Below, one piece after another: positions 39,887-56,292 of a stretch of DNA of 64,000 bases. Below the pieces are notes generated by a model. It worked only from the letters and a program-made list of their open reading frames with translations. It made no database searches and was not told the DNA's origin. The stretch spans positions 7,806 to 71,805 of IMG/VR virus record IMGVR_UViG_3300036770_004821. One strand, given 5' to 3'. A program made the translations under genes and the position numbers. How positions within the stretch are numbered: position 1 is the first letter of the stretch; each line of letters starts with the position of its first letter. The DNA is from a virus.

Positions 39887-40103
39887 TGGTTGAATGATTT
39901 ACGATTTGATCTTCGATTTGATTTGCGAGTTGATTGTATGCGGAAAAGTCATTGTGCGACTTCTCACAATCAACTTGAAATCGACTTCTAAATGCTTTAT
40001 CTCGCATCACACGAAGAATCGTGTCGATTTGATCGTCAGTGAAATAATAATCTTTGAGTTCATTCATTGAGATAAGGTTCACGGAGGTCTTCGACAAATT
40101 CAA
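39879..40103 (-). CDS. Hypothetical protein
   Basis: ORF overlapping its neighbours in operon; start uncertain. Confidence 0.55.
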   Translation of the reverse strand: MNLSKTSVNLISMNELKDYYFTDDQIDTILRVMRDKAFRSRFQVDCEKSHNDFSAYNQLANQIEDQIVNHSTND

Positions 40104-40107
40104 GTGC

Positions 40108-40380
40108 TTACATCAATTCAGGATCTTCATACTGTCTCCATTGTTCACGGAGTTCGTTATCAATACACTCAGAGATTTCAGTGTAGAGATAATCATAATC
40201 TTCAAGATTGCTGAGAACGTTCTCAGCAATCTCACGGGGTTGTTTTACCTGATTGCAGTCATCATCCATCACAAACACATCTTCTTTTGTGAAAATGAAG
40301 GCAGCAACAGGAGCATCTTCACCCTGTTGTTCAATCAAACGTTGGACGGAATCTTGAAGTTGTTTGAGAGTGCGGTACAT
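40108..40380 (-). CDS. Acidic hypothetical protein
   Basis: Start MYRTLKQ just below the cassette promoter. Confidence 0.65.
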   Translation of the reverse strand: MYRTLKQLQDSVQRLIEQQGEDAPVAAFIFTKEDVFVMDDDCNQVKQPREIAENVLSNLEDYDYLYTEISECIDNELREQWRQYEDPELM

Positions 40381-40402
40381 GAGATTTCTCAGGAACAAAT
40401 GT

Positions 40403-40461
40403 AATGTAGTAGGGCATGGGGGCATTAGGAACCCCCTTGTGCCAGTTAATTAAGTGTCACA
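40403..40461 (-). promoter_or_regulatory. Palindrome-promoter cassette
   Basis: gtgccagt-taatta-agtgtcac, 30 bp from TACATT. Confidence 0.7.
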
Positions 40462-40709
40462 TTAGAATTCAATCTCCCAAACTTTTTTATCGTGTAAGAA
40501 AGAGAGTCAATCAACGTCCCGGATTGTGCGGTGAGTTCTTTGACTAATTCATTGCCAATGTCCTCATCATCAGCATCATCGGAAATCTCAATCTCAACAA
40601 TGTAACCTACATACTCCTCTTGAAGATGCTCCTGAAGATTTGGTTGTTGAAGTAGATCAAGAGAATCAAGATCGAAAGAAATGTCGGTGACTTGAAGTTG
40701 GAGAATCAT
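40446..40709 (-). CDS. Acidic hypothetical protein
   Basis: 87-aa ORF; stop lies inside the palindrome. Confidence 0.65.
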   Translation of the reverse strand: MILQLQVTDISFDLDSLDLLQQPNLQEHLQEEYVGYIVEIEISDDADDEDIGNELVKELTAQSGTLIDSLSYTIKKFGRLNSNVTLN

Positions 40710-40740
40710 TTTCAGAAACTAAAGAAAAGAATGAAATGAA

Positions 40741-40911
40741 CTAGACAAGAGCAAGAGCAGAAGAATCTTGACGAGGATTCTTGATTTGCTTAACCCAGGT
40801 AGATTTGCGATTCTTCACTTGCGAAGGAAGTTTGCTGTAACCTTGAACTTCATTCACAAGAGCAATGAGATTGAGAAAGAATTGCTTTTCCATTCTCTGT
40901 GCGGTGGTCAT
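40741..40911 (-). CDS. Small hypothetical protein (56 aa), missed by the ORF track
   Basis: MTTAQRMEKQFFLNLIALVNEVQG...; directly below a cassette promoter. Confidence 0.6.
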   Translation of the reverse strand: MTTAQRMEKQFFLNLIALVNEVQGYSKLPSQVKNRKSTWVKQIKNPRQDSSALALV

Positions 40912-40935
40912 TGCCTTTCCCTCGATTGCTACGCA

Positions 40936-40995
40936 ATCCTAGCACGGGACGGGGGGGTTCGGGGGGTATAGTGTGCCAGTTTCACAAGTGGCACA
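40936..40995 (-). promoter_or_regulatory. Palindrome-promoter cassette
   Basis: gtgccagt-ttcaca-agtggcac, 31 bp from TAGGAT. Confidence 0.75.
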
Positions 40996-41019
40996 TTGGG
41001 TAAGAGTCTCAGGTGAGAA

Positions 41020-41529
41020 TCAGAGACTCTTATACAAACTTCCGTATTTTCCGAAAATCGTCTGAAATCTATTCAGTCGATTTCCAAGATAGATGATTGC
41101 AGATTGAAATGGTGCTGCGCTCTTTCCTTCACCAAACTTCAATCTTCGATTTATAGCAATCCAAGGATAATCAGATACTGATTTCCACCAAACAGTAGAT
41201 ACATCTAATTTGATGAGAAGTATCATTTCTTTACTATTTCCTTTTTCATATTGATTCACTGCATAAGGTATCCAATTCTTACTGTCACTGTAAGGATGAT
41301 TCATAAAAACAGAATCTGCAATCCAATCGTGTTGCAATCCATTTGTGATTTCTGTGAATACTCTTTTTGCAGGAACATTTGGATTATTTTCATCATTTGA
41401 GCAAGGGTCTAAATCAACCTCACCTTCAAAAAATACAAGTACATCCTCTACAAATGATTTTGGAGTATTCCAACAATCAGTTCGATTTCCTGTCGATGCT
41501 GTGAGTGCTTTAAGCGCGGTTGAAGTCAT
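41020..41529 (-). CDS. Phage-type DNA N6-adenine methyltransferase
   Basis: WNTP, VDLDPCS, NGL..DW, VFMNHPYS (NPPY-like), RLKF, APF.SAI. Confidence 0.85.
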   Translation of the reverse strand: MTSTALKALTASTGNRTDCWNTPKSFVEDVLVFFEGEVDLDPCSNDENNPNVPAKRVFTEITNGLQHDWIADSVFMNHPYSDSKNWIPYAVNQYEKGNSKEMILLIKLDVSTVWWKSVSDYPWIAINRRLKFGEGKSAAPFQSAIIYLGNRLNRFQTIFGKYGSLYKSL

Positions 41530-42119
41530 AAAATTGTTTTTCCGTAATTAGCAAGAAGATAAAATGCCATTCCTTTATCTTTTAGTTGAACTCCATTATA
41601 GCACATCGGAGTGTATTCTCCACGCCTATTTTTGGATGCTTTTGTTCTAATTTGCAGTAGTTTGTTTGGACCTGTAATTGTATTTAACTCTGATCCTTCA
41701 GCATATGAAAGTTTGATTTGAGCGCAAATATAACCATAATCTTCTGCAAGATAATTATAATGTTCAGCGTGAGTTTCTGAATCGACTGTGATATTTCCCC
41801 TATATTGATTATTACGAGTAAATCCAATGTAGATAGTTTTATCTAATTTCTTGCCAACCTTGCTCTCATCAAACTCAACTCTATTTTCAATAATTTCTTG
41901 TAAGCAATGTTTGAGGTTAGTTACAGCGATAGTTTCACCAATGGTAAATGTTTTTAGTTCACCATCAATCAAATCTCTGAGATTTGAACTATTCTTAACT
42001 CCAAGTGCAATTTCAATGAGTTGTCCACGTTTACCTTTATTTCTTCCAGGTTTGTGAAAGGAATCAAAATCAAAGTTAGAAAACTTTGATTCAACATCAG
42101 CAACGGTGAGTTTAGTCAT
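41526..42119 (-). CDS. MutH/Sau3AI-like PD-(D/E)xK endonuclease
   Basis: NKGKRGQLIE..LG..N....DL.DGELKT, LLQIRTK, C-terminal AFYL; ATGA-coupled to the methyltransferase. Confidence 0.75.
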   Translation of the reverse strand: MTKLTVADVESKFSNFDFDSFHKPGRNKGKRGQLIEIALGVKNSSNLRDLIDGELKTFTIGETIAVTNLKHCLQEIIENRVEFDESKVGKKLDKTIYIGFTRNNQYRGNITVDSETHAEHYNYLAEDYGYICAQIKLSYAEGSELNTITGPNKLLQIRTKASKNRRGEYTPMCYNGVQLKDKGMAFYLLANYGKTIL

Positions 42120-42146
42120 AACTTAATTAGAATCTTGAGTTTCAGG

Positions 42147-42309
42147 GGTCGGGACCAGACCCCTCCTAATCTCAGGTGAGACTCGATGAGAACCCAGTCC
42201 ACCACTGGACCGAAAACCGGAAAAACAATGGATTCTACCCTTCAGGTGTCCTAGGTCATCCCCCGCAGTCTCATCACCTGTTCATGTGAAACTGTTAAGA
42301 CTGCCCTCA
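42147..42309 (-). repeat. Structured non-coding element, copy A (paralog at 46301-46459)
   Basis: Shares long identical blocks with copy B, e.g. ccgcagtctcatcacctgttcatgtgaaactgtt(a/g)agactgccctca. Confidence 0.8.
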
Positions 42310-42471
42310 ATCGACCTGCGATTCATCATCTTTAGGAAGAAAATCGTTGAGTTTTTGAATCAGTGGTTCAGTGAGTTCATAACTCTTGAACCAGGATTGT
42401 TCGTCAAGAACATACAGTCCGTGAAGAATTGTATTGAGTTCTTGTTCTGTGACTTGAATTGTAATTTTCAT
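42307..42471 (-). CDS. Small hypothetical protein (54 aa), missed by the ORF track
   Basis: MKITIQVTEQELNTILHGLY..., similar to the N-terminus of 62479-62754 (FQITEQELEILHDALY). Confidence 0.6.
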   Translation of the reverse strand: MKITIQVTEQELNTILHGLYVLDEQSWFKSYELTEPLIQKLNDFLPKDDESQVD

Positions 42472-42475
42472 TGTT

Positions 42476-42739
42476 TTATAGTTGAGACAACACCCACATC
42501 ATAGCAGAAACTTCTTGTTTTGTATTCCAACCAGAAACATCATCAGTCATGTTTCCATTGGGTCGAATGATTGCAACTTCATAAGTATTCGGTGCTTCAA
42601 CAATTTCATTGATTTCACCGTACAATCCACAACCAGGGGCACCAGAGACAACACTAATCTCCCAACCATTCTCAAACTTATGCTTTGCAGCAATCGCATT
42701 GGGAATGTGATGCGGTTGAAAATCAAGAAGATCGAACAT
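42476..42739 (-). CDS. Hypothetical protein (paralog of 49119-49436)
   Basis: FENGWEISVV...YEVAI...V.GW. Confidence 0.7.
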   Translation of the reverse strand: MFDLLDFQPHHIPNAIAAKHKFENGWEISVVSGAPGCGLYGEINEIVEAPNTYEVAIIRPNGNMTDDVSGWNTKQEVSAMMWVLSQL

Positions 42740-42765
42740 TAGAGTTCCGTTGCTTGTGTTCCTGT

Positions 42766-42824
42766 ATTATAGGGCATCCAGTGCCCCAGTGGGAGTTTTA
42801 TGTGCCACTAGAACAAGTGGCACA
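42766..42824 (-). promoter_or_regulatory. Palindrome-promoter cassette (family A)
   Basis: tgtgccact-agaaca-agtggcaca, 30 bp from TATAAT. Confidence 0.85.
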
Positions 42825-42837
42825 AGGGGTCTGCGAC

Positions 42838-43059
42838 TCACTGCGAGATCGAGTTTAAGTATCGCATCAAATCAGGAATCTTGGAATTATCATAAAATGG
42901 ATCAATGTCAACTGGGATCTCAAGATAAGGATGATTCTCGGTAAGATAATTTACCATAAATTGTCCGTATCGTTGAGTTCCACAATGCTTCATAAAAGCA
43001 TCGTTGACATCTTTAATGAAGAAATTGTAATCAAAAGTCATCGTAGTCACTGGTGTCAA
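42838..43059 (-). CDS. Hypothetical protein
   Basis: QRYGQ..VNYL...DPFYD pattern. Confidence 0.65.
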   Translation of the reverse strand: MTPVTTMTFDYNFFIKDVNDAFMKHCGTQRYGQFMVNYLTENHPYLEIPVDIDPFYDNSKIPDLMRYLNSISQ

Positions 43060-43291
43060 TTAAATTCCATTCAAGATCTAAACTGTCAATGAACTTTAGA
43101 AGTTCATTCTCATCTGAGGGTAGATTTTCATCTTCATCAAGACAAAATTGTGCAGAACATAATCCAGGTCCAAATTCTTTTGGATCAAAATAAGTTCCCT
43201 TGAATGTAACAATGCTGTCCTCTACAACAGCATTTACATTTACTACACCCTCCTCATCTACAAAGATTTCTTCAATTGAAAGAACAGACAT
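43031..43291 (-). CDS. Acidic hypothetical protein
   Basis: Start MSVLSIEE; DPKEFGPGLC pattern. Confidence 0.65.
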   Translation of the reverse strand: MSVLSIEEIFVDEEGVVNVNAVVEDSIVTFKGTYFDPKEFGPGLCSAQFCLDEDENLPSDENELLKFIDSLDLEWNLIDTSDYDDF

Positions 43292-43320
43292 ACTAGAAAG
43301 AAAAGAAAAGTGTGGGGGAA

Positions 43321-43998
43321 TTATACCCCACACAGTTGACGTTGAACAGAACCACTTGCCTGCCGATGAAGTGACACACCAGCACCGACATTTGCACCCA
43401 CAGCAGCACCAGCACCACTCGCACCATTCATTCTCTTGGCACGACCAAACCGCATCGTAGACAGTTTCTTATCCACTGCCTCTGCATCATCGTGAGTGCG
43501 ACCTTCCTCTTTCTTCATTTCAGCAAGTCGCATTGCAACTTTATCTGCAAATGCCTTGCGGAAATTAAGTTTGAAAGAACGGGAAACAGTAGCACCAGTC
43601 AGTTCGGCAAGAACTTTCTCTGCTTTATGAGCAGTTTCTGCCTCACGTTCCATCACTTGACACAGATAGTCAAAATAGAGTTTGACTTGGATTTGCTGAC
43701 CCTCACTACCGATCACTTGAAGTGATTTATGATCTACCTTGTTGGAAAGGTATGCTTTTGCATCATAGAAGTTTGCAACAGCATTGAGAAGAATGGAAAG
43801 AGCAGCATTGGTTTTCTTGAAGATCATAAACGACTCATCAAGAACTTGAGTTTCAGTTGCTTCACTGATCGAAACTCCGTATTGCTGACAGAGTTTATCA
43901 ATCATTGCAGCAGCAGCAGATGCTTCACCCTCAAAGTCAGTTCCATTCTGGAGTTTGAGAATGGATTGGATTTTGGCAATAACTTGTTGACGATCCAT
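43321..43998 (-). CDS. DUF2786-domain protein
   Basis: IAKIQSILKL....EGEASAAAAMIDKLCQQYG N-terminal motif; start MDRQQ. Confidence 0.75.
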   Translation of the reverse strand: MDRQQVIAKIQSILKLQNGTDFEGEASAAAAMIDKLCQQYGVSISEATETQVLDESFMIFKKTNAALSILLNAVANFYDAKAYLSNKVDHKSLQVIGSEGQQIQVKLYFDYLCQVMEREAETAHKAEKVLAELTGATVSRSFKLNFRKAFADKVAMRLAEMKKEEGRTHDDAEAVDKKLSTMRFGRAKRMNGASGAGAAVGANVGAGVSLHRQASGSVQRQLCGV

Positions 43999-44049
43999 AA
44001 TAAGAATAATGAATGAGACTTGAGTGGGACTGGACCCCTCCACCTCTTT

Positions 44050-44107
44050 AATCTACCACACTTTGGGGTCCGTGCTCTTTTAGTGTGCCACTAGAACAAG
44101 TGGCACA
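44050..44107 (-). promoter_or_regulatory. Palindrome-promoter cassette (family B)
   Basis: tgtgccact-agaaca-agtggcaca, 29 bp from TAGATT. Confidence 0.85.
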
Positions 44108-44146
44108 TGGAGTATGAGACTTGAGGTGAGACTGACTAACGATTAC

Positions 44147-44557
44147 TCATACCAGTTTTTTTGAATCAAACTTACCATAAGTGATAACTGCGTATTCAGT
44201 TTGAACTTTACCGTTCACAAAATACTTGACCCACATATCATCAGGTTCTTCACCATTACCAGTAAGAATGAACAGCACATTCCGATATTTCTTAGAAACA
44301 TTACGCATATCCTCGGTGTGTTCATACCATTTGCACTCTTCCTCAAATGGGTTGTAAGTTAGAAATTCAACTACATCATCTTGAGTAACAAAACTACTTT
44401 TATATGAATTGTTAATTTCCCCAATCAGTTTTTCTTTCAGGGTATCAGAAATGTTGGATTCTTGAATTTCTTTGATTTCAGCATTTTTGTTTTTCTCATT
44501 CTCATTTTTGAATTGAGTATCGTCAATACTGAGTTCGTAGTAAGTGTTGTAACCCAT
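44147..44557 (-). CDS. Conserved phage hypothetical protein
   Basis: MGYNTYY...KWYEH.EDM..VSKKY...F.L.G.GEE..D.W..YF.NGK. Confidence 0.7.
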   Translation of the reverse strand: MGYNTYYELSIDDTQFKNENEKNKNAEIKEIQESNISDTLKEKLIGEINNSYKSSFVTQDDVVEFLTYNPFEEECKWYEHTEDMRNVSKKYRNVLFILTGNGEEPDDMWVKYFVNGKVQTEYAVITYGKFDSKKLV

Positions 44558-44583
44558 AAAAGTTGTGTGTTGTGTACGAATGT

Positions 44584-44642
44584 ATTGTAAGGCATCAAAG
44601 GGCACCAGTCCAGTGCCCCTGTGCCAGTTGTTTAAGTTTCCT
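44584..44642 (-). promoter_or_regulatory. Palindrome-promoter cassette (one arm degenerate)
   Basis: gtgccagt 31 bp from TACAAT. Confidence 0.6.
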
Positions 44643-45081
44643 CAAGTTGGAGAAGTTCAAGATAAAACTGATGGTATTTCGTAATCCTTGCAATATCTTT
44701 ATCACTTACACCCTTCAACCTACGAATGTCGGTATTGTGACGTAAATCTGCCATTTTGACTTTGACCGCATCCTTATTCTTCTTCACTCGTTCCTTGTAT
44801 TCATCATAAGTTTCACCGGGAACTTTAGTCAAAGATTGAATCCCTTTGATAATCCTATCGGTAAAACCTTCTTGTTTGAGATGAGAATAAGTTACATCAG
44901 TATCTTCAATAATATCGTGACCCAGAGCAATACACTGGAGTTCCTCATCAACACTCCGAAGATAGTGCATCACTTTCAACGGGTGAAGAATATAAGGATT
45001 GCCACCCTTATCATATTGTCCTGCGTGAGCATTAGTGGCAAGAACCAACATTTTGTTCAGCAGTTCACCTTTTTTAATCAT
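44632..45081 (-). CDS. HD-domain hydrolase, RelA/SpoT-hydrolase (Mesh1/SAH)-like
   Basis: AHAGQ.DK.G.PYILHP..V, LGHDIIEDT, LTK, VKMADLRHN. Confidence 0.85.
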   Translation of the reverse strand: MIKKGELLNKMLVLATNAHAGQYDKGGNPYILHPLKVMHYLRSVDEELQCIALGHDIIEDTDVTYSHLKQEGFTDRIIKGIQSLTKVPGETYDEYKERVKKNKDAVKVKMADLRHNTDIRRLKGVSDKDIARITKYHQFYLELLQLEET

Positions 45082-45103
45082 CGGGCATCCCCAACAGAAT
45101 AGT

Positions 45104-45162
45104 ATTATAGGGCATCCGGTGCCCCGGTGCGAGGTGTAGTGGACAGTTCTACAAGTGGCACA
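45104..45162 (-). promoter_or_regulatory. Palindrome-promoter cassette (family A)
   Basis: tggacagt-tctaca-agtggcac, 30 bp from TATAAT. Confidence 0.8.
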
Positions 45163-45179
45163 GTCTCACATTGGTCTCA

Positions 45180-45275
45180 TCAAAGTTGTGCTTCAATCAA
45201 ATCAGCAATTTCATTAAATGTTGAGCCATTGTCATTCAATTCAGCAACTGCGACATTGAAGTTGTAAGAGTTGTT
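45180..45275 (-). pseudogene. Start-less C-terminal gene remnant
   Basis: Frame reads ...NFNVAVAELNDNGSTFNEIADLIEAQL* with no in-frame ATG after the preceding stop. Confidence 0.45.
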
Positions 45276-45397
45276 TGTTTAGACTACAAACTCCTCAAGA
45301 AAATAGTCTACTGTGATTTCCATTTCCTCACAGATTTTCTCTACACACTCACCAGTGAGTTGTTCGTACCAGTAGCAAAAGATGATTTGTTCTTCGG

Positions 45398-45682
45398 TCA
45401 TTCAGTAACCTCAACAGTGTTGGTGAAACTTTTCAGTTTCTCAACAATCGAATCAATAAAATTCAGAATCACATTGATGGCATTGAGAACCTTTTGATTG
45501 CCGTTGTTTTCTTGGTATGCTTTGTGAATGAATTGAAACACACCGACAACAACTGCCGCAACTGTCGCAATCCAATACAGAGTAGTTTGTATGAATTGCG
45601 ACTGATAAATCGCATTAACTTTTTGCGTAACGACTTCCATTGAAATAAAATGATTAAAAGAGTTAGTGTTAGAATCAAGCAA
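45398..45682 (-). CDS. Hypothetical membrane protein
   Basis: One hydrophobic segment (LYWIATVAAVVVGVF); start uncertain. Confidence 0.55.
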   Translation of the reverse strand: MLDSNTNSFNHFISMEVVTQKVNAIYQSQFIQTTLYWIATVAAVVVGVFQFIHKAYQENNGNQKVLNAINVILNFIDSIVEKLKSFTNTVEVTE

Positions 45683-45893
45683 AAACTTGGGAGATTAGTA
45701 CACCTTCTTGATATACATTCACAGGAACACCATTGAGTTCAGCACTCCAATCCCAGGCAGAATCATAAGCAGATTCTTCATCCGTAAAGTATTCTGCATC
45801 ATCCAGAATGAAACCTTCGGTTTGAGGAAGAATTGCGAACATTGGATTAAAGAAAATAGTTGGAAATAAAGAGGGAGAATGTATCTCCCTCAA
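45675..45893 (-). CDS. Hypothetical protein
   Basis: Likely true start MFAILP; AWDWS.E pattern. Confidence 0.55.
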   Translation of the reverse strand: MREIHSPSLFPTIFFNPMFAILPQTEGFILDDAEYFTDEESAYDSAWDWSAELNGVPVNVYQEGVLISQVFA

Positions 45894-45899
45894 TTAGAA

Positions 45900-46100
45900 T
45901 CAGAGGGCAGCAAGGTATGCTTCGATCTCATCATCATTTTCAGGGCAATCAGCAATGCCCAGATCCTCGCAAACTTGTTCCCGAGTGTATTGAACTTGAG
46001 TGGGAACAAGAGTTTCCAGAATCTCAAGGATTTGATTACCAGTAGCACCCTTGCGGAGCATACCAACCATCAGTTCGGGAGAAAAAGTAGCAGCAGTCAT
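45900..46100 (-). CDS. Hypothetical protein (paralog of 46457-46579)
   Basis: ELMVGML...TGNQILEILETLV. Confidence 0.7.
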   Translation of the reverse strand: MTAATFSPELMVGMLRKGATGNQILEILETLVPTQVQYTREQVCEDLGIADCPENDDEIEAYLAAL

Positions 46101-46211
46101 TTAGAATAAAGTTGAGTTTAATTTGTGGTAAGTGTTTGGACTCCTACAAGAGGCACTCCCAAACCAGAACCCCGGAGTGTGAAACAACCGGACTTCCCTC
46201 ACCACTCCCTT

Positions 46212-46269
46212 AATGTAGCAGGTTTCGGGGGCAGTGGGGGATTTAGTGGACAGTTTGGGAACTGGCACA
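46212..46269 (-). promoter_or_regulatory. Palindrome-promoter cassette
   Basis: tggacagt-ttggga-actggcac, 29 bp from TACATT. Confidence 0.75.
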
Positions 46270-46300
46270 CTCATCTGGGACTCAATGAGATTGGCCCTAA

Positions 46301-46459
46301 GGTCGGGTGCCCCCTCCAATCTCAGGTGGGACTCGATGAGACCGACTGCGGCACCTAGGGGCAAAACCCAAAATACTTTCGATTCTGCCTCCCAGGTGCC
46401 CTAGGTCGTCCTCCGCAGTCTCATCACCTGTTCATGTGAAACTGTTGAGACTGCCCTCA
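46301..46459 (-). ncRNA. Structured non-coding element, copy B; candidate long-hairpin RNA
   Basis: Nested pairings CAGGTG/CACCTG, GATGAGAC/GTCTCATC, TGCGG/CCGCA, ACCTAGGG/CCCTAGGT. Confidence 0.55.
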
Positions 46460-46579
46460 CATTTCAGGTTGGGCATCAGTTTCATCAGCAACTTCACTTA
46501 CAAGAGCATCAAGAATGTCAAGAAGTTCATTGCCAGTGTTGGCACGATTCAGCATAGCAACCATCAGTTCTTGGGACAT
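46457..46579 (-). CDS. Small hypothetical protein (40 aa), missed by the ORF track
   Basis: MSQELMVAMLNRANTGNELLDILDALVSEVADETDAQPEM. Confidence 0.6.
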   Translation of the reverse strand: MSQELMVAMLNRANTGNELLDILDALVSEVADETDAQPEM

Positions 46580-46670
46580 AATAAAAATGAATGAATAAAG
46601 AATAAGTGAGTGTCTTTATCGGTCAGATATTTCCAACCCCTAGGCGCATCTCATTCCTATTATCCATCAA

Positions 46671-47177
46671 TCAAAGATGACGGAAGTAATAACCATTCTC
46701 CTCATAGTAATCAAATCGCAGAGCAGTTTCCCAAGTTGCCTCTACATCAATCACAATCCAAGTAGGAATGTTCAGATCAAACATTGTGATAAAGTAATCT
46801 ACAAAGTCATCTTTGGAATCAAAACAACCCTCATAAGTCTCTTCAAATAGATTAAGATCACTTACATCAAACATAGACATAAATGCTTCCACTGTGATGA
46901 TTGTGGATGAACTGGTGGATAATGGTTATGAACTTGAAGAAGTTCTTGAGTTTGTTGATTATTTCGGTGAAGAATACTCCGAAGTAATCGAAAGCATCAT
47001 CGACACAGTAAATGATGCTGGATCTGGCAAATCTGATCTTTACGATTTCATCGAGAATCAAGGAGTTGAAAATGTAGAGCATTTTCCCACTTATTGGAGT
47101 CTGATTGAAGATTATAACCCAAACGCAGTGGAAGGTGCCAGAATTTCTTTGTAGTTGTCGGTGAAAGTGATGGACAT
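46671..47177 (-). pseudogene. ArdA-like anti-restriction gene interrupted by an internal inversion (46886-47134)
   Basis: Minus-strand start MSITFTDNYKEILAPST, plus-strand middle (46894-47133) and minus-strand ArdA-like C-terminus join in frame across 9-bp inverted repeats. Confidence 0.85.
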
Positions 47178-47379
47178 TGGATTTCCAATAATAAGTGATT
47201 TAAGTGTAAAATGTATCTAGAATGTGTTTACCTACGATAGGGTGATTTCCAGTATGCTTTATAAACAGCAACCAGAATGAAGGCAGTGGAAACAACGCCA
47301 ACAAATCCCAGGATAGTCACAAAGTCGCCAGAAAAGTTAAGAGTATCAGGCATTAGTCAGATTTCTTAGGAACAAGTGT

Positions 47380-47438
47380 AGTATAGCAGGTGGTGGGGGC
47401 ATAGCGCCCCTTGATGTGCCACTTCGTTAGGTGTCACA
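47380..47438 (-). promoter_or_regulatory. Palindrome-promoter cassette
   Basis: gtgccact-tcgtta-ggtgtcac, 30 bp from TATACT. Confidence 0.75.
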
Positions 47439-47685
47439 TGAGTTTCTTCATGTTCAAGAAACTCATTTTAATCATTTCACCTCCAACATAAAACAACACA
47501 TAGTAAGGAAAAACTTCAATATCACCATCTACAACGGAAAGATCCACATAATCATCCCCATTATTGTCTGCGATGTAAGGGCTATCATCAGTGTCGTACC
47601 CCACAAAGTAGAGAGTATCATTTACACAAACTGCATAAGAATCAGAAAGCAGATCGTGGAACTGTTCAAGCGTAATGGTGGTCAT
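47434..47685 (-). CDS. Hypothetical protein
   Basis: Start MTTITLEQ; 83 aa. Confidence 0.6.
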   Translation of the reverse strand: MTTITLEQFHDLLSDSYAVCVNDTLYFVGYDTDDSPYIADNNGDDYVDLSVVDGDIEVFPYYVLFYVGGEMIKMSFLNMKKLM

Positions 47686-47749
47686 AAGAACCTCAGAAAC
47701 AAATGAATCGTAAAGCAGTCTTTTGGGCGATGCTGTTCCCAAAAATGAG

Positions 47750-47891
47750 TACCCGATGTTGGAATTGAACCAACTCCGTTCTATCAGTGAGTAACCAATT
47801 CACCTAGATGTTCACTACACACAATCAATAATTGGTTAGATTATTGATTGTGTGTATATTCCATCCGAACTACCTGCCATTAGAATCGGGC
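47750..47891 (-). ncRNA. tRNA-like RNA (acceptor stem and T-arm) with a long central extension
   Basis: GCCCGAT/ATCGGGT 7-bp acceptor-like stem, GTTGG-TTCAATT-CCAAC T-arm, internal 17-bp perfect hairpin at 47816-47856. Confidence 0.6.
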
Positions 47892-47930
47892 ATGTACTCA
47901 GTAGGTTCTGGGAGGTATTTCAACCTCCCT

Positions 47931-47954
47931 TGTGTCAGTTAGTCAGGTGTCACA
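47931..47954 (-). promoter_or_regulatory. Palindrome copy upstream of the tRNA-like RNA (-10 box unclear)
   Basis: gtgtcagt-tagtca-ggtgtcac. Confidence 0.5.
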
Positions 47955-48132
47955 CATCATAGCAAATGCAACTTTTCTTCATCTCTGCCCACCACACTTG
48001 ATCGGACTCTGACATAATAGAAGTCAGAGACATGCAGAAGTTAGCAAGTTCTGCCCTGCTGGCGTTCAGTTCCATATGATGATCGTGGCGTTCCACAATC
48101 TTGCTGTTCATGTAGTTGGAGAAATTGAACAT
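47950..48132 (-). CDS. Hypothetical protein
   Basis: 60-aa ORF below a cassette promoter. Confidence 0.55.
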   Translation of the reverse strand: MFNFSNYMNSKIVERHDHHMELNASRAELANFCMSLTSIMSESDQVWWAEMKKSCICYDV

Positions 48133-48158
48133 AAGAGGAATCCCTCAGCGACAAATGT

Positions 48159-48218
48159 AGTATAGCACCTTGGAGGGGGCACCGCAAGGGGTGCTGTGCC
48201 ACTTGTCAGACTGGCACA
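48159..48218 (-). promoter_or_regulatory. Palindrome-promoter cassette
   Basis: tgtgccact-tgtcag-actggcaca, 31 bp from TATACT. Confidence 0.8.
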
Positions 48219-48424
48219 TCCTCCAATAGTGCCTTATGACAACGATCTGCTTCTTCAAGCATATCTTCATCAATTCGATCCCACTCTACCCAATCATAAG
48301 CAGAATAGGTTGTCTCGTATGATCCATCAGAAAGAAGAGGAGCATACATTAACACTCTGTCATTATCAGGATCCAGAGTATAAGTACAGTTGTTTTTTTG
48401 AGAAATAACAAAAGTCATAATCAA
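48206..48424 (-). CDS. Hypothetical protein
   Basis: 72-aa ORF. Confidence 0.6.
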   Translation of the reverse strand: MIMTFVISQKNNCTYTLDPDNDRVLMYAPLLSDGSYETTYSAYDWVEWDRIDEDMLEEADRCHKALLEDVPV

Positions 48425-48437
48425 TTCTCAAATAAAA

Positions 48438-48620
48438 TTAAAAGTCGTTAGAAGAATCTACCGAACCAAATGAATAATCATCATAGAATAGATCCTCCTC
48501 CATAGTGTCTGCCATACAATCACTTGCCAACCAAGGAAACATAGCATCCTCTTGTGCCAGTTGTTCGTAGTCCATAGGATACATTTCTTCGATTTGATTG
48601 TTTTGAATGTAAGGATTCAT
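48438..48620 (-). CDS. Highly acidic small protein
   Basis: 60 aa, D/E-rich, no Lys or Arg. Confidence 0.55.
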   Translation of the reverse strand: MNPYIQNNQIEEMYPMDYEQLAQEDAMFPWLASDCMADTMEEDLFYDDYSFGSVDSSNDF

Positions 48621-48623
48621 AGA

Positions 48624-49031
48624 TCAAAAATTGCGATTGAACACATAATTGTTGTTGATTACATAATCCCAAGCAAGATCCTTGGCAAAGGCATCATAAT
48701 CAATGTAGGATTCAAGTTCTTCGGGAACAAGATGCCCGTAAATCTCATTGAAGAAGTTTTCAGCAAAGGAGTCAAAATCACTCCATTCACCATTGTAGGC
48801 ATCATCAAAGTTATCCAGATTATCAAATCCAAACTCTGCGACAAAGGCATCTACCGCATCATAACTGACACTTTCACCAATCCGCACAAAATCCTCATAG
48901 TATTTCACAAAGGTATCTTCACCATACTCGTTAATGAAAACATAAATGTCTTCCTCATAATAAGAATCTTCGACAAGACCAGCAATGTATTCTTGAGTGG
49001 ATTCTTTGAGTTGAACTTGAGTTGCGGTCAT
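48624..49031 (-). CDS. ardA: ArdA-like anti-restriction (DNA mimic) protein
   Basis: FDDAYNGEWSDFDSFAE...VPEELESYIDYDAFAKDL..DY...NYVF; very acidic; start MTATQ. Confidence 0.75.
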   Translation of the reverse strand: MTATQVQLKESTQEYIAGLVEDSYYEEDIYVFINEYGEDTFVKYYEDFVRIGESVSYDAVDAFVAEFGFDNLDNFDDAYNGEWSDFDSFAENFFNEIYGHLVPEELESYIDYDAFAKDLAWDYVINNNYVFNRNF

Positions 49032-49058
49032 TTGCGTTTCCTTTGCTTGTGTCCTTGT

Positions 49059-49118
49059 ATTATAGGGCATCCGGTGCCCCAGTGGGGGTTTAGTGTGCCA
49101 GTCTGAAAACTGGCACAC
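49059..49118 (-). promoter_or_regulatory. Palindrome-promoter cassette (family A)
   Basis: gtgtgccagt-ctgaaa-actggcacac, 30 bp from TATAAT. Confidence 0.85.
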
Positions 49119-49436
49119 TCACTGCTTGGCAGTCCAGTTCATAATCTCCAGCATAGTTTCTGGAGTGATCCACCCCAGAACCTGATCACCTTCTGGACAC
49201 CCTGGAAAATCGGTGGAGAATTTATCATCAGGAGTGAACACTGCAATTTCTGCATCTTCACTGTGAAATCCTCCCCAAATGGGAACAGTTGCACGATGAT
49301 CAACATCCACAAATCTATTTTGGCAGTAGTTTCCCCCGCCGAACATTACACTGACCCTCCACCCGTTGGCGAAGGTGATTTGAAATCCCTTTTCAGCAAA
49401 TGTAGAGAACAACGTAGGATTGAGGAGGTTAGTCAC
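49119..49436 (-). CDS. Hypothetical protein (paralog of 42476-42739)
   Basis: GFQITFANGWRVSVMFGGGNYC...AEIAV...VLGWITPE; GTG start assumed. Confidence 0.65.
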   Translation of the reverse strand: MTNLLNPTLFSTFAEKGFQITFANGWRVSVMFGGGNYCQNRFVDVDHRATVPIWGGFHSEDAEIAVFTPDDKFSTDFPGCPEGDQVLGWITPETMLEIMNWTAKQ

Positions 49437-49464
49437 TGTGAGGTTCCTTTGCTTGTGTCCTTGT

Positions 49465-49524
49465 ATTATAGGGCATCCGGTGCCCCAGTGGGGGTGTAGT
49501 GTGCCAGTAGAACAAGTGGCACAC
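49465..49524 (-). promoter_or_regulatory. Palindrome-promoter cassette (family A)
   Basis: gtgtgccagt-agaaca-agtggcacac, 30 bp from TATAAT. Confidence 0.85.
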
Positions 49525-49531
49525 TGTATAA

Positions 49532-49870
49532 TCAATTACCCTGCATTTGCTCCCTACGATTGAGTTCCTTTTCTACCGCAATTTCAAGATGCTCTTTGAT
49601 AATAGAATTAATAGTAGATTCTATCCGACCTTCAAAATGAGCAATGAGGTCATACCATTTATTATTCGCAACCCTACGAGCAATCTTATTCGTAAAATAT
49701 TCATCATAACGGAGAATTTCACTCACATTAGATTTAACCATATCACGAATTGAATCTTGGTCGGTAAATTCTTTTTTGCGAGTCTCAAGTTCTTCGAGAA
49801 GATAATTCAGACCAGCAATAAGATTGTCAATCTTAACCAGATTATCGTTCAGAGTAGTGGTAGGAGTCAT
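49532..49870 (-). CDS. Helical hypothetical protein, probably co-transcribed with the E1 gene
   Basis: 112 aa; no cassette promoter between it and the ThiF gene. Confidence 0.65.
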   Translation of the reverse strand: MTPTTTLNDNLVKIDNLIAGLNYLLEELETRKKEFTDQDSIRDMVKSNVSEILRYDEYFTNKIARRVANNKWYDLIAHFEGRIESTINSIIKEHLEIAVEKELNRREQMQGN

Positions 49871-49911
49871 TTTAAGAAATTGATTAGTAAAAGTGAACTG
49901 AAGAAATTAAA

Positions 49912-50622
49912 TCAGGAAACCGTGGTTTTCAGATTGCGAAGATTGAAGAACATAGAACTTTGGTTCTTATCGAAGAATCCATCCAGGAAGTTTTGAATCA
50001 CCATCAGAGTAAGTGATGCTGCAAGAAAGTTTGCGGAAATCAGTTGAGGACGACTCGGTGCGTTCAGAGAACAAGAACCTTCGGACGGAATACTATCTTG
50101 AGGACGTTCGATGTTGGGATAAACATCTGCGGGATTGCAACCCACGTTCTCACCATTTACTTTACCAAACCAAAGAACTTGACCACGCACATCTTCAAGA
50201 CCATCAGAATTGCCTGGAGTGATGAAGATGTAGTCACCTTCACAAAAGGCCTTCATTGTGTTGATGATTGCAAGTCGAGTGGCATCATTATCCACCGAAC
50301 ACACAACCAGAGGACAAACAGAACGTCGGAGCATCGGAATAAACGTCGAGGCAGAAATGAAACTTTCCTTAGACTCAACATTGCTAAGACCCTGATATGC
50401 ACAGAAGTCTACCATCGAACGTGCTTTATTCATACCAACTTGACTAGGACCAACAAGTTGTCGAGTGGTATTCTTATCCTCAAACTCATCACCATCAATA
50501 AACACGACTTTGGAATCTTGAGTATTCTGATGATACGCAATCAGACGTGCGAGTGGAGCAGCAAGATGACCACCAGTACCACCAACACCAATCACAAAAA
50601 CGTAGTCGGGAGAAAAAGTCAT
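49912..50622 (-). CDS. ThiF/E1-like ubiquitin-activating (adenylating) enzyme
   Basis: IGVGGTGG, IDGD...KNTTRQ, NKA, VDNDATR, PGN, candidate catalytic Cys184 in EGSCS...PQLISAN. Confidence 0.92.
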   Translation of the reverse strand: MTFSPDYVFVIGVGGTGGHLAAPLARLIAYHQNTQDSKVVFIDGDEFEDKNTTRQLVGPSQVGMNKARSMVDFCAYQGLSNVESKESFISASTFIPMLRRSVCPLVVCSVDNDATRLAIINTMKAFCEGDYIFITPGNSDGLEDVRGQVLWFGKVNGENVGCNPADVYPNIERPQDSIPSEGSCSLNAPSRPQLISANFLAASLTLMVIQNFLDGFFDKNQSSMFFNLRNLKTTVS

Positions 50623-50643
50623 AATTTCCTTTGGTTCCTTTAC

Positions 50644-50701
50644 AGTATAGCAGGGGATAGGTCGAAAACAGGGGTTATAGGGACACTTGCAGAAGTGTCC
50701 C
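50644..50701 (-). promoter_or_regulatory. Palindrome-promoter cassette for E1
   Basis: gggacact-tgcaga-agtgtccc, 30 bp from TATACT. Confidence 0.8.
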
Positions 50702-50709
50702 CTGATGTA

Positions 50710-51666
50710 TCAAACCTGACCAACAATCAGTCCATCGTGAGACACAAACCACCGTTTGTTGAGTTCATCTGGAGAAGTCAGATAACCAGAGAAAAACCCA
50801 CCGTTCTTTTCGATTGTAGATTCAAACAGAGGAATCATCATAATGTGTGGTGCATCTGGAACAGACTTAAATCCAGCAGTGAGCATTTGGAAAAATGCAG
50901 AAATATCTTCCGCAGCATCAAGAAGCATCAGAGCATCTGGACTTTCAGTGCTAAGAAGTTTCTCATTCTCCTTCTCATAAAACTCTCCATTGTCGGCAAG
51001 ATACCGAGTTTCTCTTGAGTTGTCTTCAAATGCCCTCATAGGCAGAAGGTCATTATTAAATGGAGTTTCAAAGTAAGCCTCAACAATACCCCTCAGAGTT
51101 TGAGGTCTATCGTTGTCTCCCCAACAAACACCCTCGGGGTAATCTGAACAACCAAAAACATTGGCAGCCATCATTGTTTCGGTGGAATGAATGTTTCCAT
51201 CGTCCCCCACCTTACCCGCAGAAAGATATGCGGTATCACCATCAAGAGAAAACTTAGAGTAATGAGTCTTCAGATGATTCAGGGCAATTCCGAATACCAT
51301 ATTGGAGAGTCGGAAGTCAATAACATCATCTTCTGCCCCGTGTCCTTCTGGGCAAGTTTGACCGTAATAACCTTCATCATACACAGCACAATGATTCCGA
51401 AGGTCTGGATGGTCCCAATTTACATCACCCTCATCATCTTCATAGTTGGAAAGAAAGTCACAGCAATTCCTAGGACAATCATCACAGAAAGCATTGTGAA
51501 AATCATCATTATCGGGTTTTACTTCCTGATGAATGTTCTTATACCCATCAGGCATCCACGCTTTAATCCAAAGATAATCAGATACGGAGAATGTAATTAT
51601 TTCCGAACCTTTAGGTAGAGGATGAACTTTAGCCTTATTTGGTTGGTTTAGAAAAATTACAGACAT
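50710..51666 (-). CDS. Prokaryotic E2-like (PRTRC protein B / Prok-E2 family D-like) protein with a Cys-rich N-terminal insert
   Basis: ANVF......GVCWGDN......IVEAYFETPFNNDL motif; start MSVIFL below its promoter. Confidence 0.7.
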   Translation of the reverse strand: MSVIFLNQPNKAKVHPLPKGSEIITFSVSDYLWIKAWMPDGYKNIHQEVKPDNDDFHNAFCDDCPRNCCDFLSNYEDDEGDVNWDHPDLRNHCAVYDEGYYGQTCPEGHGAEDDVIDFRLSNMVFGIALNHLKTHYSKFSLDGDTAYLSAGKVGDDGNIHSTETMMAANVFGCSDYPEGVCWGDNDRPQTLRGIVEAYFETPFNNDLLPMRAFEDNSRETRYLADNGEFYEKENEKLLSTESPDALMLLDAAEDISAFFQMLTAGFKSVPDAPHIMMIPLFESTIEKNGGFFSGYLTSPDELNKRWFVSHDGLIVGQV

Positions 51667-51688
51667 TTGTTTGGTTTCTTGTTCCAAC

Positions 51689-51748
51689 ATTGTAGCACGC
51701 ATCAGGGGTAAAACTGGGATATGGTGGACACTCCAAGAAGTGTCCACC
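51689..51748 (-). promoter_or_regulatory. Palindrome-promoter cassette for the E2-like gene
   Basis: ggtggacact-ccaaga-agtgtccacc, 30 bp from TACAAT. Confidence 0.8.
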
Positions 51749-51760
51749 AAAGGTATTCAA

Positions 51761-52783
51761 TCAAACAACAGTGGACATAAGGTCTTCACTTTCAACTTCA
51801 AGATAATCATCGAGGTCTTTTACGAAATCCTCAAGTTCATCTTTAAGTTTGTAGAGAAGCATTGGATTGTCTAGATGTTGCTCCAGATAGTCGGCAAGAG
51901 TATCTGTAATGTTCCAACAGTCAATCTTATGATTAGAATTGTAGGAATTACTCCAGTAGAATGGGTCATTCTTATAATCCGTGTAATCATTACCCCAACC
52001 CAAGTTCTTAGGATTGCTATATTGAGACTTACTGTAAGTACCAGTAGATACTTTCTTCGACCAAACAACTGCTTTGATTGCTGGTTTGGTGAAGTCTACA
52101 TAATTGATAACATCTGGATGAAACTCTACTCCAGGACAAGCAGAAGCATCAATCAGTTTATCAAATTGAACTTCAAACCGACGACGAGAACCAACAACAG
52201 AAGCAGCAATTCGATATTTCATATTGGTGGTGTCAATAGAACCCACAACAATATGAATACCAGGGTCATTCAGTTCATATTTGTCATCAATAGAACTGAA
52301 GAACGCTTCCATAGTATTATGACTATGCGAAGAACCCACAGGAATCCAACCATCAGGAGGATACTGAGTGATTTCTTCACCAGTCTCCAGGTCGATAGAA
52401 ACATCGAAATCTTCTGCTCGCACAGAAGCAGCAGAGACTTTCTGATAAGGAATCAGAAAACGATACTTAGAAGGGTCTTCTGCACTACGAAGGATGCGAG
52501 TAGAAACTTCTACCGTATCTTGAACTTTGTCTACAAAGTAGAAACAGAGTTTGACCCACTTTGTCCACAGGTCAGCAGGAATACGGTGAATATCCTCTCG
52601 CAGTTGAAACTCCTCAAGGTGCTTATCACTAATTTCTACATTTGCATCAGGGTCATCTGCTTCTCGCAGATAGGAACCCCAAGGACCATCATATACTTCC
52701 CACACACCATCCCTACGAGTTCGAAGAATGGTGGGAGATTGAACTTCTTGAACTTCTTGATTTTCTTCAGTAAGAGTGGTCAT
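51761..52783 (-). CDS. JAB/JAMM (Mov34) metallopeptidase
   Basis: Exact HxH-x7-S-x2-D motif (HSHNTMEAFFSSID), upstream VEVS and PYQKVSAASV, downstream GIHIVVG. Confidence 0.9.
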   Translation of the reverse strand: MTTLTEENQEVQEVQSPTILRTRRDGVWEVYDGPWGSYLREADDPDANVEISDKHLEEFQLREDIHRIPADLWTKWVKLCFYFVDKVQDTVEVSTRILRSAEDPSKYRFLIPYQKVSAASVRAEDFDVSIDLETGEEITQYPPDGWIPVGSSHSHNTMEAFFSSIDDKYELNDPGIHIVVGSIDTTNMKYRIAASVVGSRRRFEVQFDKLIDASACPGVEFHPDVINYVDFTKPAIKAVVWSKKVSTGTYSKSQYSNPKNLGWGNDYTDYKNDPFYWSNSYNSNHKIDCWNITDTLADYLEQHLDNPMLLYKLKDELEDFVKDLDDYLEVESEDLMSTVV

Positions 52784-52803
52784 TTTGAATAATTCAGGAT
52801 AGC

Positions 52804-52844
52804 AAAATACTTCCCATTGAGGAAAAAATCCTCAATGGGAAGTA
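52804..52844 (-). terminator. 16-bp stem-loop followed by TTTT between Ubl and JAB
   Basis: tacttcccattgagga-aaaaa-tcctcaatgggaagta. Confidence 0.7.
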
Positions 52845-52863
52845 GGAAAACAAAGGGAGTAAC

Positions 52864-53124
52864 TCAACCCTTGCTCTCAGAAGTTACAGCCCCCCTAATG
52901 CTCTCACCAGCACGCACAACGGTATCACCAGGCACAATCTCGGTGTTCAGAACAAAGCGGTTGATTCGACTCACATCACCCAGAGAATGACCGTACTCAC
53001 CGAACAGTTGGGAAACAGTTTTGCCACGGAACTGATCGGAAGTCAGAGTGATGCTCTCCTCGTTGAGGTACAGAGTCACAGGAGCGGTTTGGTCAGCGGT
53101 GCGGATTTGATCGAAGAAAGACAT
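52864..53124 (-). CDS. Ubiquitin-like (beta-grasp) protein ending in ...SESKG
   Basis: 86 aa from MSFFDQ; VTLYL..SITL, GKTVSQLF, FVLNTEIV.GDTVVRAGESI pattern; C-terminal Gly; operon context. Confidence 0.8.
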   Translation of the reverse strand: MSFFDQIRTADQTAPVTLYLNEESITLTSDQFRGKTVSQLFGEYGHSLGDVSRINRFVLNTEIVPGDTVVRAGESIRGAVTSESKG

Positions 53125-53186
53125 GATAAAGAAAAGAGTAGAGGTCAAATGTTGGATGAAAGAGTCACCTTCTCACCAACCCCATA

Positions 53187-53244
53187 ATCATAGCACCTTA
53201 ACGGTGTGATTGGGGGTGTGTGTGGACAGTTCCGAAACCGGACC
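53187..53244 (-). promoter_or_regulatory. Palindrome-promoter cassette for Ubl
   Basis: tggacagt-tccgaa-accggacc, 30 bp from TATGAT. Confidence 0.65.
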
Positions 53245-53284
53245 TGGAGAAAGTGGTTAAGACCCTTCCCTGCCAACTGAAATC

Positions 53285-53343
53285 AGTATAACACGGATTG
53301 AGGGTCTCACAAGCGGGAGTGTGCCACTAGAACAAGTGGCACA
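53285..53343 (-). promoter_or_regulatory. Palindrome-promoter cassette (second, tandem, upstream of Ubl)
   Basis: tgtgccact-agaaca-agtggcaca, 30 bp from TATACT. Confidence 0.8.
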
Positions 53344-53355
53344 TCAGGTAAGAAA

Positions 53356-53607
53356 CTACCAAACTCCCCGTTTGATATGATAGTTACGAATTTCCTTGAA
53401 AAGGAATTCTTTCAGTTTAACATCATCAGTTTTTTCGTATGCCTCATACAGACGATTTACATAATCCTCTTGTTTGACACACTTGACTACTTTTGCTGTA
53501 GTTACACCCAGATCATTGAGAGGAGAACCTGCTTTCCTGCGAGGTTGTGAAACAGCACCAGAAGTTCTAAACTTTGTTTTTATTTTAGAAAGATTGGAAG
53601 TAGTCAT
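53356..53607 (-). CDS. Basic hypothetical protein
   Basis: 83-aa ORF. Confidence 0.7.
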   Translation of the reverse strand: MTTSNLSKIKTKFRTSGAVSQPRRKAGSPLNDLGVTTAKVVKCVKQEDYVNRLYEAYEKTDDVKLKEFLFKEIRNYHIKRGVW

Positions 53608-53813
53608 TAGTTACAAGCAAGAATCAGATTTGCTACCCTATTTTCAGGAACAAAGTCCTGAAGTTTATCGTAAACACCTTCAAACTGTTGAATGATGTTT
53701 GTATAATATGCAGCAAGATGAGGTTCCTCAAAAATCTCTGCGTCTTTTACTTTATAGTCAAGAGCAGAGATAATGTCTAGGATTTCACCGGAGGTCAAAG
53801 AAATAGAAGTCAT
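53607..53813 (-). CDS. Hypothetical protein
   Basis: 68 aa, TAATG coupling. Confidence 0.65.
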   Translation of the reverse strand: MTSISLTSGEILDIISALDYKVKDAEIFEEPHLAAYYTNIIQQFEGVYDKLQDFVPENRVANLILACN

Positions 53814-53970
53814 TTTTGTCCGTAAAGTTCAGTGAATACATCAGGAGAATCGAGTGCGTTCTCCATCTCTTTAAGAATTGATATTTCTCGTGCCCAGAAT
53901 CCCATCTCTCCCTTTGCTTTAAGATAGTTGTTGCGAGCATCATAGAGTGCTCGTTGAATTTCTACACGGT

Positions 53971-54156
53971 TCATTTGATGTTAAAGATGTCGAACAGTTC
54001 TTGTTGAGTCTTGGTGAAAAGAGTATCAGGTTCTGGGTAGTTGTGAACTTCCTCTTGAAGTTGCTTGTAAGTATAAAGCATATCTTGCAGAGCAAGAAGT
54101 TGCTTTTCAGTCAGGACTTCTTCGAGCATTAGAACTTGGTCAAGCATAGTTTTCAT
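53971..54156 (-). CDS. Hypothetical protein
   Basis: 61 aa, GGGAG RBS. Confidence 0.6.
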   Translation of the reverse strand: MKTMLDQVLMLEEVLTEKQLLALQDMLYTYKQLQEEVHNYPEPDTLFTKTQQELFDIFNIK

Positions 54157-54348
54157 CAGTAATCACTCCCGTCATTTTGACATTGTTGAATCCAGTAGGA
54201 ATAGCAAGGAAAGTTAAGTGGGTGGTCTTTATGTCTTTGATACCAATTAAAGGCAAGATTCAATCGGTTTTCTGGCACCTTCAAATAAGAAAGATTAGAT
54301 TGAATTGGAATGTAAGTTGTGGGCATCTGATACTCTCTCTACTCTTCT

Positions 54349-54407
54349 AATATAGCAGGTTTTGGAGTCTGTGCTCTTTTAGTGTGCCACTAGAACAAGT
54401 GGCACAC
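54349..54407 (-). promoter_or_regulatory. Palindrome-promoter cassette (family B-like)
   Basis: gtgtgccact-agaaca-agtggcacac, 29 bp from TATATT. Confidence 0.85.
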
Positions 54408-54430
54408 AGTATAAGAGACTTACCTTGAGA

Positions 54431-55672: not shown

Positions 55673-55687
55673 TTCAAGTGTAAAGTA

Positions 55688-55746
55688 ATTATAGCACGGA
55701 CCCTGCCGGACCCGTGCTTTAAGTGGACAGTCCTACGACTGGCACA
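55688..55746 (-). promoter_or_regulatory. Palindrome-promoter cassette for the helicase
   Basis: tggacagt-cctacg-actggcac, 30 bp from TATAAT. Confidence 0.8.
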
Positions 55747-55777
55747 TCAGGATAAGAAATTAAGAATAAGTTAAGAT

Positions 55778-56110: not shown

Positions 56111-56292
56111 TCAGCAAAGGTGGAGAGAAGTTGAAAGTCAGAGGATACTTCCTCAAACTCATAATCTACCAAATCTTCATCACCTTCCAGTCCCATTGAT
56201 ACACTTTCGGGGATGAACTTGCGAGGATGTGAACCTTCCTCAATATCAAGAACAAGAGTAACTTTCCAACGTTTAGTAGTCATAATCAGCAA
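56107..56292 (-). CDS. Hypothetical protein
   Basis: 61 aa, ATGA coupling. Confidence 0.6.
   Translation of the reverse strand: MLIMTTKRWKVTLVLDIEEGSHPRKFIPESVSMGLEGDEDLVDYEFEEVSSDFQLLSTFAD

Follow-up and report, generated by a model that had tools for sequence, protein, structure and literature searches.

A short-repeat inversion, very probably a one-off event, in an ArdA-like gene of an uncultured T4-like phage

Inversion of an ArdA-like gene

An ArdA-like gene (46671..47177, - strand) of an uncultured T4-like myovirus is split by an internal inversion whose two ends lie in a 9-bp inverted repeat. Coordinates refer to the window, i.e., the whole stretch of 64,000 nucleotides that was analysed, which corresponds to bases 7806-71805 of a linear 71.8-kb IMG/VR viral record. 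We consider it very probable that this is a real, heritable and lineage-specific inversion, made once between two microhomologies, and that the gene is a recent pseudogene and no switch. A preliminary description of the window, made from its letters alone, had left three readings side by side (an intragenic ON/OFF switch, a one-off microhomology inversion, and a chimera of amplification or assembly). It is the second of these that agrees with the intact relatives of the gene and with the recurrence of the inverted allele in contigs of three samples.

The record, a metagenome-assembled viral contig, is about 35% complete (CheckV). A PHROG scan of 79 ORFs returned a terminase, a sheath stabiliser, a head-closure protein, gp6/7/8-type baseplate wedge proteins and giant structural proteins, together with enzymes such as a peptide deformylase, a dCMP deaminase and an HD phosphohydrolase. 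T4-like myoviruses of Synechococcus and Prochlorococcus have counterparts of the gp6-like protein with 55-58% identity and, based on this identity and on the structural genes found in the PHROG scan, we assign the record to an uncultured T4-like myovirus.

Structure of the broken gene

Two exact reverse-complementary 9-mers lie within the gene, CTTCCACTG at 46886-46894 and CAGTGGAAG at 47126-47134 (both as read on the + strand), and their match cannot be extended on either side. As assembled, the gene that starts with the ATG at 47177 (- strand) ends after 21 codons (ORF 47112-47177), its middle reads on the + strand (ORF 46894-47154, 86 aa), and its 3' part is left as a 73-aa open frame (46671-46892, - strand). 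Reverse-complementing 46895-47125 by script produced a single frame of 168 codons plus stop, just as the preliminary description had stated. Followed from its start, the gene begins with a 5' piece in the original orientation (47135..47177, - strand) that comprises the start codon, codons 1-14 and the first base of codon 15; its N-terminus agrees with the N-terminus of the family, and the stop of the 21-aa ORF lies just past the junction. This is followed by the arm at the upstream break point (47126..47134), the inverted 231-bp segment (46895..47125, + strand), the arm at the downstream break point (46886..46894) and the 3' piece with the ArdA-like C-terminal domain (46671..46885, - strand), which runs from the second base of codon 98 through codon 168 to the stop. 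The inverted segment (249 bp with the arms counted) carries the ancestral codons 18-95, now on the opposite strand, with codon 18 short of its first base and codon 95 of its last two (these bases lie in the arms); the mechanical 86-aa ORF includes the whole segment. The two arms are in the same codon phase.

On its own, the 9-bp repeat is not beyond chance. When the gene was shuffled 2000 times by mononucleotides, at least one exact 9-nt inverted pair arose in 1421 cases (71%), the gene as assembled has four exact 9-mer inverted pairs, one of which belongs to an unrelated perfect 10-nt pair (46672-46681/46806-46815), and exact 9-nt inverted pairs no more than 600 nt apart number 833 in the window. 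What does go beyond chance is that the break points, as defined by the relatives of the gene, coincide exactly with the 9-bp pair, and that nothing was inserted or deleted there.

Translation from the native start would stop after 21 codons, leaving the central 78 codons antisense and the C-terminal ArdA-like domain without its start, and the gene has, to judge from these frames, presumably lost its function. GTG and ATG codons that lie in frame within the 73-aa C-terminal piece offer starts from which it could still be translated. A scan of 46300-47600 for sigma-70 promoters and terminators gave two promoter-like sites against 3.5 expected and no terminators; as the promoter-like sites are not above chance, they lend no support to a + strand promoter driving the 86-aa ORF. 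Upstream of the gene are a small ORF of 41 aa (47228-47353, - strand; phrog_14199, E 4.6e-16) and a repeated promoter-like leader (47365-47399, - strand; repeat family D7, four copies), and a leader similar to the latter stands directly before the intact gene in the viral contig L004. The small ORF and the leader (47228..47399) probably lead a transcript that runs into the broken gene.

Intact relatives and the ancestral state

L004 encodes an uninterrupted 168-aa protein (P0001) that passes both junctions exactly like the flipped reading of the window. A search with P0001 returned 42 proteins of 134-207 aa (most of 167-169 aa), with which the flipped frame is collinear; the intact phage proteins of this family have 163-207 aa. 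Apart from P0008, the flipped frame aligns from residue 1 over 165-168 columns with 40 of the other 42 database proteins, the exceptions (P0007 and P0043) both being truncated. With P0008 the alignment runs gapless from 1-168 on 1-168 with 144/168 residues identical, and the closest intact allele, P0051 (168 aa), which was reached by exact look-up of the C-terminal piece, is identical at 164/168 positions (97.6%), again with no gaps. Given these gapless alignments with P0008 and P0051, both break points lie within the short inverted repeat and no bases were gained or lost there. All full-length relative loci (12/12) are collinear and intact, and the inversion is the derived state, since these 12 loci, the proteins of the family and a ~98% identical contig from an independent study (see below) are un-inverted.

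The flipped protein retains 18/18 invariant and 33/41 near-invariant columns of the family, and most of its eight departures from the near-invariant columns appear common to its subclade (read by eye from the printed sequence of the viral contig L006). Thus it shows no apparent sign of long decay, a pattern that fits a recent event. Compared with the window by blastn, L006 matches at ~96% in the flanks on one strand and at 92.8% in the segment on the other; L006 and a further contig, L012, have 92% nucleotide identity and look like the intact second haplotype described below. Blastn of 46400-47500 against GenBank phages gave no match, and a scan of viral contigs with the 73-aa C-terminal piece gave no confirmed one. 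L005, a GC-rich contig with a weak 35% match, was judged unrelated.

L006 is ~96% identical to the window on both sides of the ArdA-like gene, and the 750 bp upstream of the start codon are unmatched (47198-47950). The intact-haplotype contigs from sequencing runs also diverge from the window right at 47177. This upstream divergence looks like a cassette swap with its boundary at the start codon.

Inverted and intact haplotypes in contigs

Part of a 2-kb stretch around the gene is held by 20 runs, four of which (X1, X2, X4, and X5) were compared over the portions that their contigs cover; X1, for example, has no cover at 46469-46669. The run data are Logan contigs (k=31 assemblies) and not raw reads, and such contigs drop rare variants. 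X1, X2 and X4 are samples of one study (P1); its runs provide evidence that depends neither on the assembler nor, as samples, on one another, though P1 may be the source of the window, with data perhaps shared. Window-type contigs cross both junctions in all three of these samples with 0-2 differences: 46714-47455 in X1 (record 4, 742 nt, 0 differences, depth 56), 46714-48000 in X2 (record 13, 0 differences, depth 29), and records 17 and 19 of X4 with 2 and 0 differences, respectively. These contigs are unbranched through both junctions.

A second, ~92% identical haplotype in the same three samples has the intact orientation and differs from the window at 19 positions in the flanks and 17 in the segment (X1 record 5, X2 record 14, and X4 record 18; depth 101, 65, and 15). 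As this haplotype is intact in the same runs as the inverted one, orientation goes with haplotype, and a single orientation per haplotype was seen in the contigs of the four runs, in which rare variants are hidden. Where contigs of X1, X2 and X5 join the window on opposite strands (46885-46895/47125-47135), nine letters are common to both sides, and in the ~92% variant six letters are common at one joint. The inverted haplotype makes up 56/157 (X1), 29/95 (X2) and 15/30 (X4) of the summed contig depth, and because it thus amounts to ~1/3-1/2 of the two haplotypes by this measure, the loss of the gene would not be strongly harmful.

The fourth run, X5, comes from the independent study P2, and its record 22 (3555 nt) has ~30 differences over 1766 aligned bases, i.e., it is ~98% identical to the window. 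In this contig 46886-47134 lie on the other strand with nine letters common at both joints, so that the gene is intact and the repeat is perfect, and therefore the repeat predates the inversion. By eye, the X5 differences at 46920, 47054 and 46832 would give three of the four substitutions of P0051.

That the window is a metagenome-assembled viral contig speaks for an assembly or whole-genome-amplification chimera that would be absent from phage DNA, as does the general observation that inverted joins at short homologies are common among amplification chimeras. Against this, both junctions recur in the separate k=31 assemblies of the three samples, and a k=31 graph should not be misled by a repeat of only 9 bp. 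The inverted form also has its own haplotype, and its un-inverted parent was not seen in contigs, even though a chimera should accompany its parent. Furthermore, P0048, an 85-aa ORF specific to the inverted allele, has been recorded from three contigs and three sources, the longest contig being the window's own record. An exact search of viral contigs, a set that may not include that record, gave 0 matches to the 33-nt junction as assembled.

Identity of the gene product

The product of the flipped frame is very acidic (40 D+E vs 5 K+R, pI 4.05) and is related to an intact ArdA-like paralog of 135 aa at 48624..49031 (- strand), both as first proposed; hhalign of the paralog with the family profile gave a probability of 97.6% and E 2.6e-12 over 105 columns. 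The paralog itself matches Pfam ArdA (PF07275) with 36.3 bits (cut-off 27) and phrog_36653 with E 3.5e-17, and the C-terminal piece of the broken gene (the 73-aa frame) matches the same PHROG, an 'anti-restriction protein', with E 2.1e-9. The preliminary label "ArdA-like" stood in part: the C-terminal two thirds are distantly homologous, and family membership by Pfam threshold does not hold. A Pfam search with the two gene pieces and P0001 gave no ArdA match, and the 168-aa family stays below the Pfam ArdA threshold, with 17/42 members at E <= 0.01 and a best value of 1.8e-4.

An AlphaFold model of P0008, used as a stand-in (pLDDT 91.8), has ArdA (2W82_A) as its top match by VIA-align (Z 6.5, rmsd 2.4 A, 77 residues), and the superposition is limited to model residues 91-168, i.e., the C-terminal domain; the N-terminal 90 residues are helical in the model and have no clear structural match. 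Foldseek of this model against the PDB returned nothing at E <= 0.001 (ArdA ranked fourth, E 1.5), and the family profile against PDB sequences returned no ArdA, the best hit being a GGDEF protein (E 0.034). Distant cyanophage homologs (26-33% identity) carry the annotation 'anti-restriction protein'. ArdA acts as a dimeric mimic of DNA against Type I restriction-modification enzymes. Like ArdA (PF07275; 2W82), the protein is small and very acidic, with a DNA-mimic-like charge, and is encoded among early-type genes of a mobile element, its C-terminal two thirds are homologous to a paralog above the Pfam ArdA threshold, and its best structural match is ArdA; unlike ArdA, it belongs to a family below that threshold and superposes over residues 91-168 only. 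We consider 'ArdA-like' a fair label for the C-terminal part, resting as it does on profile and model comparisons, and the anti-restriction role a predicted one.

Origin of the inversion and alternative readings

In the reading that we favor, illegitimate recombination would have taken place once between two 9-bp inverted microhomologies present in the gene by chance, the ninth matching base having been supplied by a GCA-to-GAA change (Ala to Glu) peculiar to the lineage of the window and X5. The inversion would have come about either through a pair of template switches at a replication fork or through break-and-rejoin, and the product does not tell the two apart. That the loss was tolerated may be due to the intact ArdA-like paralog 1.4 kb away, which may buffer it.

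The inversion could also be real and selected, in that the knock-out of a DNA-mimic-like protein would let the phage escape a PARIS-like sensor defence, which would explain the share of the inverted allele. This share is substantial in X1, X2 and X4, a second ArdA-like gene is kept, and defence systems that sense the anti-restriction protein Ocr are reported (PMC9122126 and PMC11455837); one may speculate that loss of the gene is favored where hosts sense DNA-mimic proteins. However, contig depths are poor measures of abundance, and a neutral loss that hitch-hikes on a successful haplotype fits the same data. We regard such selection as unlikely.

A programmed, reversible intragenic inverton, in which a recombinase flips the segment at the 9-bp repeats and so turns anti-restriction ON or OFF as bet hedging, would account for break points exactly at an inverted repeat, for arms in the same codon phase and for three gene pieces that are all still open frames. 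Both orientations do turn up together in single samples, each on a haplotype of its own, and intragenic invertons of a 'premature stop' type are described in bacteria (10.1101/2023.03.11.532203). The repeat, however, is of chance length and is not conserved in homologous genes, being 9/9 in 0/12 relatives, 8/9 in two of them (L006 and L012) and 3-6/9 in the other ten. The statement of the preliminary description that no invertase is visible in the window can be extended to the whole 71.8-kb record (~35% complete), which has no match to the serine or tyrosine recombinase families (PF00239 and PF00589), and the PHROG scan found no recombinase among its 79 ORFs; one may reside elsewhere in the genome or in the host. 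In the contigs of the four runs, which drop rare variants, none carries the SNPs of the window in the flipped-back form, and the X5/P0051 lineage, with its perfect repeat and intact gene, shows only the intact form in its contig. The proposed ON/OFF switch is thus very improbable, with a repeat that relatives do not share, no recombinase in the record and one orientation per haplotype in the contigs.

In another variant, the 9-bp arms would be a low-frequency reversible flip site that operates without a dedicated invertase in a recombination-rich T4-like phage and keeps an ON/OFF population. Were it true, it would be a viral intragenic inverton controlling a counter-defence gene, in which OFF could be favored against host defences that sense DNA mimics. 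A minority of flipped-back molecules may exist on the window haplotype, yet we give this variant very little credence. Finally, a chimera of assembly or amplification is scarcely credible for junctions found in three samples on a haplotype that is distinct both inside and outside the segment.

Comparison with known inversions

One-off microhomology inversions are already familiar, and this one opens no new mechanism and settles no standing question. Its nearest counterpart comes from E. coli KLY (PMC4272514), where a non-variable 24-bp micro-inversion with 8-bp flanking repeats interrupts an antitoxin gene. Both inversions are intragenic, have a perfect inverted repeat of 8-9 bp at the break points, disrupt the gene product, are homogeneous within their lineage (here as far as contigs show) and need no dedicated recombinase. 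They differ in that the segment here is ten times longer (231 bp) and in that its carrier is a wild T4-like phage haplotype known from metagenomes, whereas the E. coli case is a laboratory clone. Spontaneous inversions of this sort are known in E. coli, and Schofield, Agbunag and Miller (1992, Genetics 132:295) are said to have described another case.

The intragenic invertons of bacteria, as described by Chanin et al. (10.1101/2023.03.11.532203), are made by a recombinase, are reversible and occur in both orientations in one population. Like them, the inversion here lies wholly within coding sequence, creates a premature stop and splits the gene in pieces; unlike them, it has one orientation per haplotype in the contigs, a repeat that is not conserved and no recombinase in the 71.8-kb record. 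Template switching between short inverted repeats inverts the spacer and gives rise to multinucleotide mutations, according to the abstract of PMC8604942. The short inverted repeats as switch points and the inversion of the intervening DNA inside genes are shared with our case; that abstract deals with multinucleotide mutations, whereas our case concerns a stretch of 231 bp, for which template switching is one of two proposed mechanisms.

The locus provides a clean natural example of the death of a phage accessory gene, as environmental data yielded the ancestral allele, the microhomology that preceded the event and the derived allele alike. It suggests that in a wild T4-like phage a stretch of hundreds of bases can be turned round at short inverted microhomologies and, with one of two ArdA-like paralogs presumably lost, that counter-defence genes of the hyperplastic region turn over quickly. 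It also offers a signature for annotation, i.e., a wrong-strand ORF (here of 86 aa) between two gene stubs, which would otherwise be called as three hypothetical proteins.

The surrounding gene region

The ArdA-like locus sits among short - strand genes (64/77 greedy ORFs are on this strand), in a region rich in repeated intergenic hairpin and promoter-like cassettes. The hairpin GTGCCACTAGAACAAGTGGCAC has at least ten intergenic copies between 40436 and 57379 of the window, and a cassette of 73-92 nt, which on the gene strand consists of a hairpin followed by a TATAAT-like box, has four to five copies (42748, 45102, 49041, 49447, and 57288). Promoter/stem-loop cassettes have been described in the hyperplastic regions of T4-type phages, and the hairpin/TATAAT-like cassettes of the window resemble them. 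Scans of the window for tRNAs and against Rfam found none, so that tRNAs and known RNAs do not account for the GC-rich intergenic repeats. The G+C content is 0.26-0.33 over the structural genes (1-33000) vs ~0.38-0.42 over the accessory-gene region (40000-60000), a step that may reflect a horizontally acquired block or two genomes joined in assembly.

Close to the broken gene, a GC-rich stretch without a convincing ORF (46105-46460, - strand) folds at -139.6 kcal/mol (z -4.08; 0/100 shuffles as stable) and has no Rfam match. A length of 130 nt from it recurs 4.15 kb away at 86-88% identity (42160-42309, a partial copy; repeats D6/D8), and the ~98% identical relative from X5 has 65 other letters in place of 46120-46234. 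For this stretch, a structured RNA and a mobile element are both conceivable.

Two endonuclease-type ORFs were seen elsewhere in the window. One is of GIY-YIG homing endonuclease type (38433-39248, + strand) and lies on the strand opposite to its neighbours; the other is HNH/endonuclease VII-like (3209-3769, - strand) and adjoins the gene for the large terminase. This terminase ORF (571-3216, - strand; 881 aa) is longer than T4 gp17 and matches a full-length PHROG profile of 890 positions, and some shorter terminase profiles match it in two stretches.
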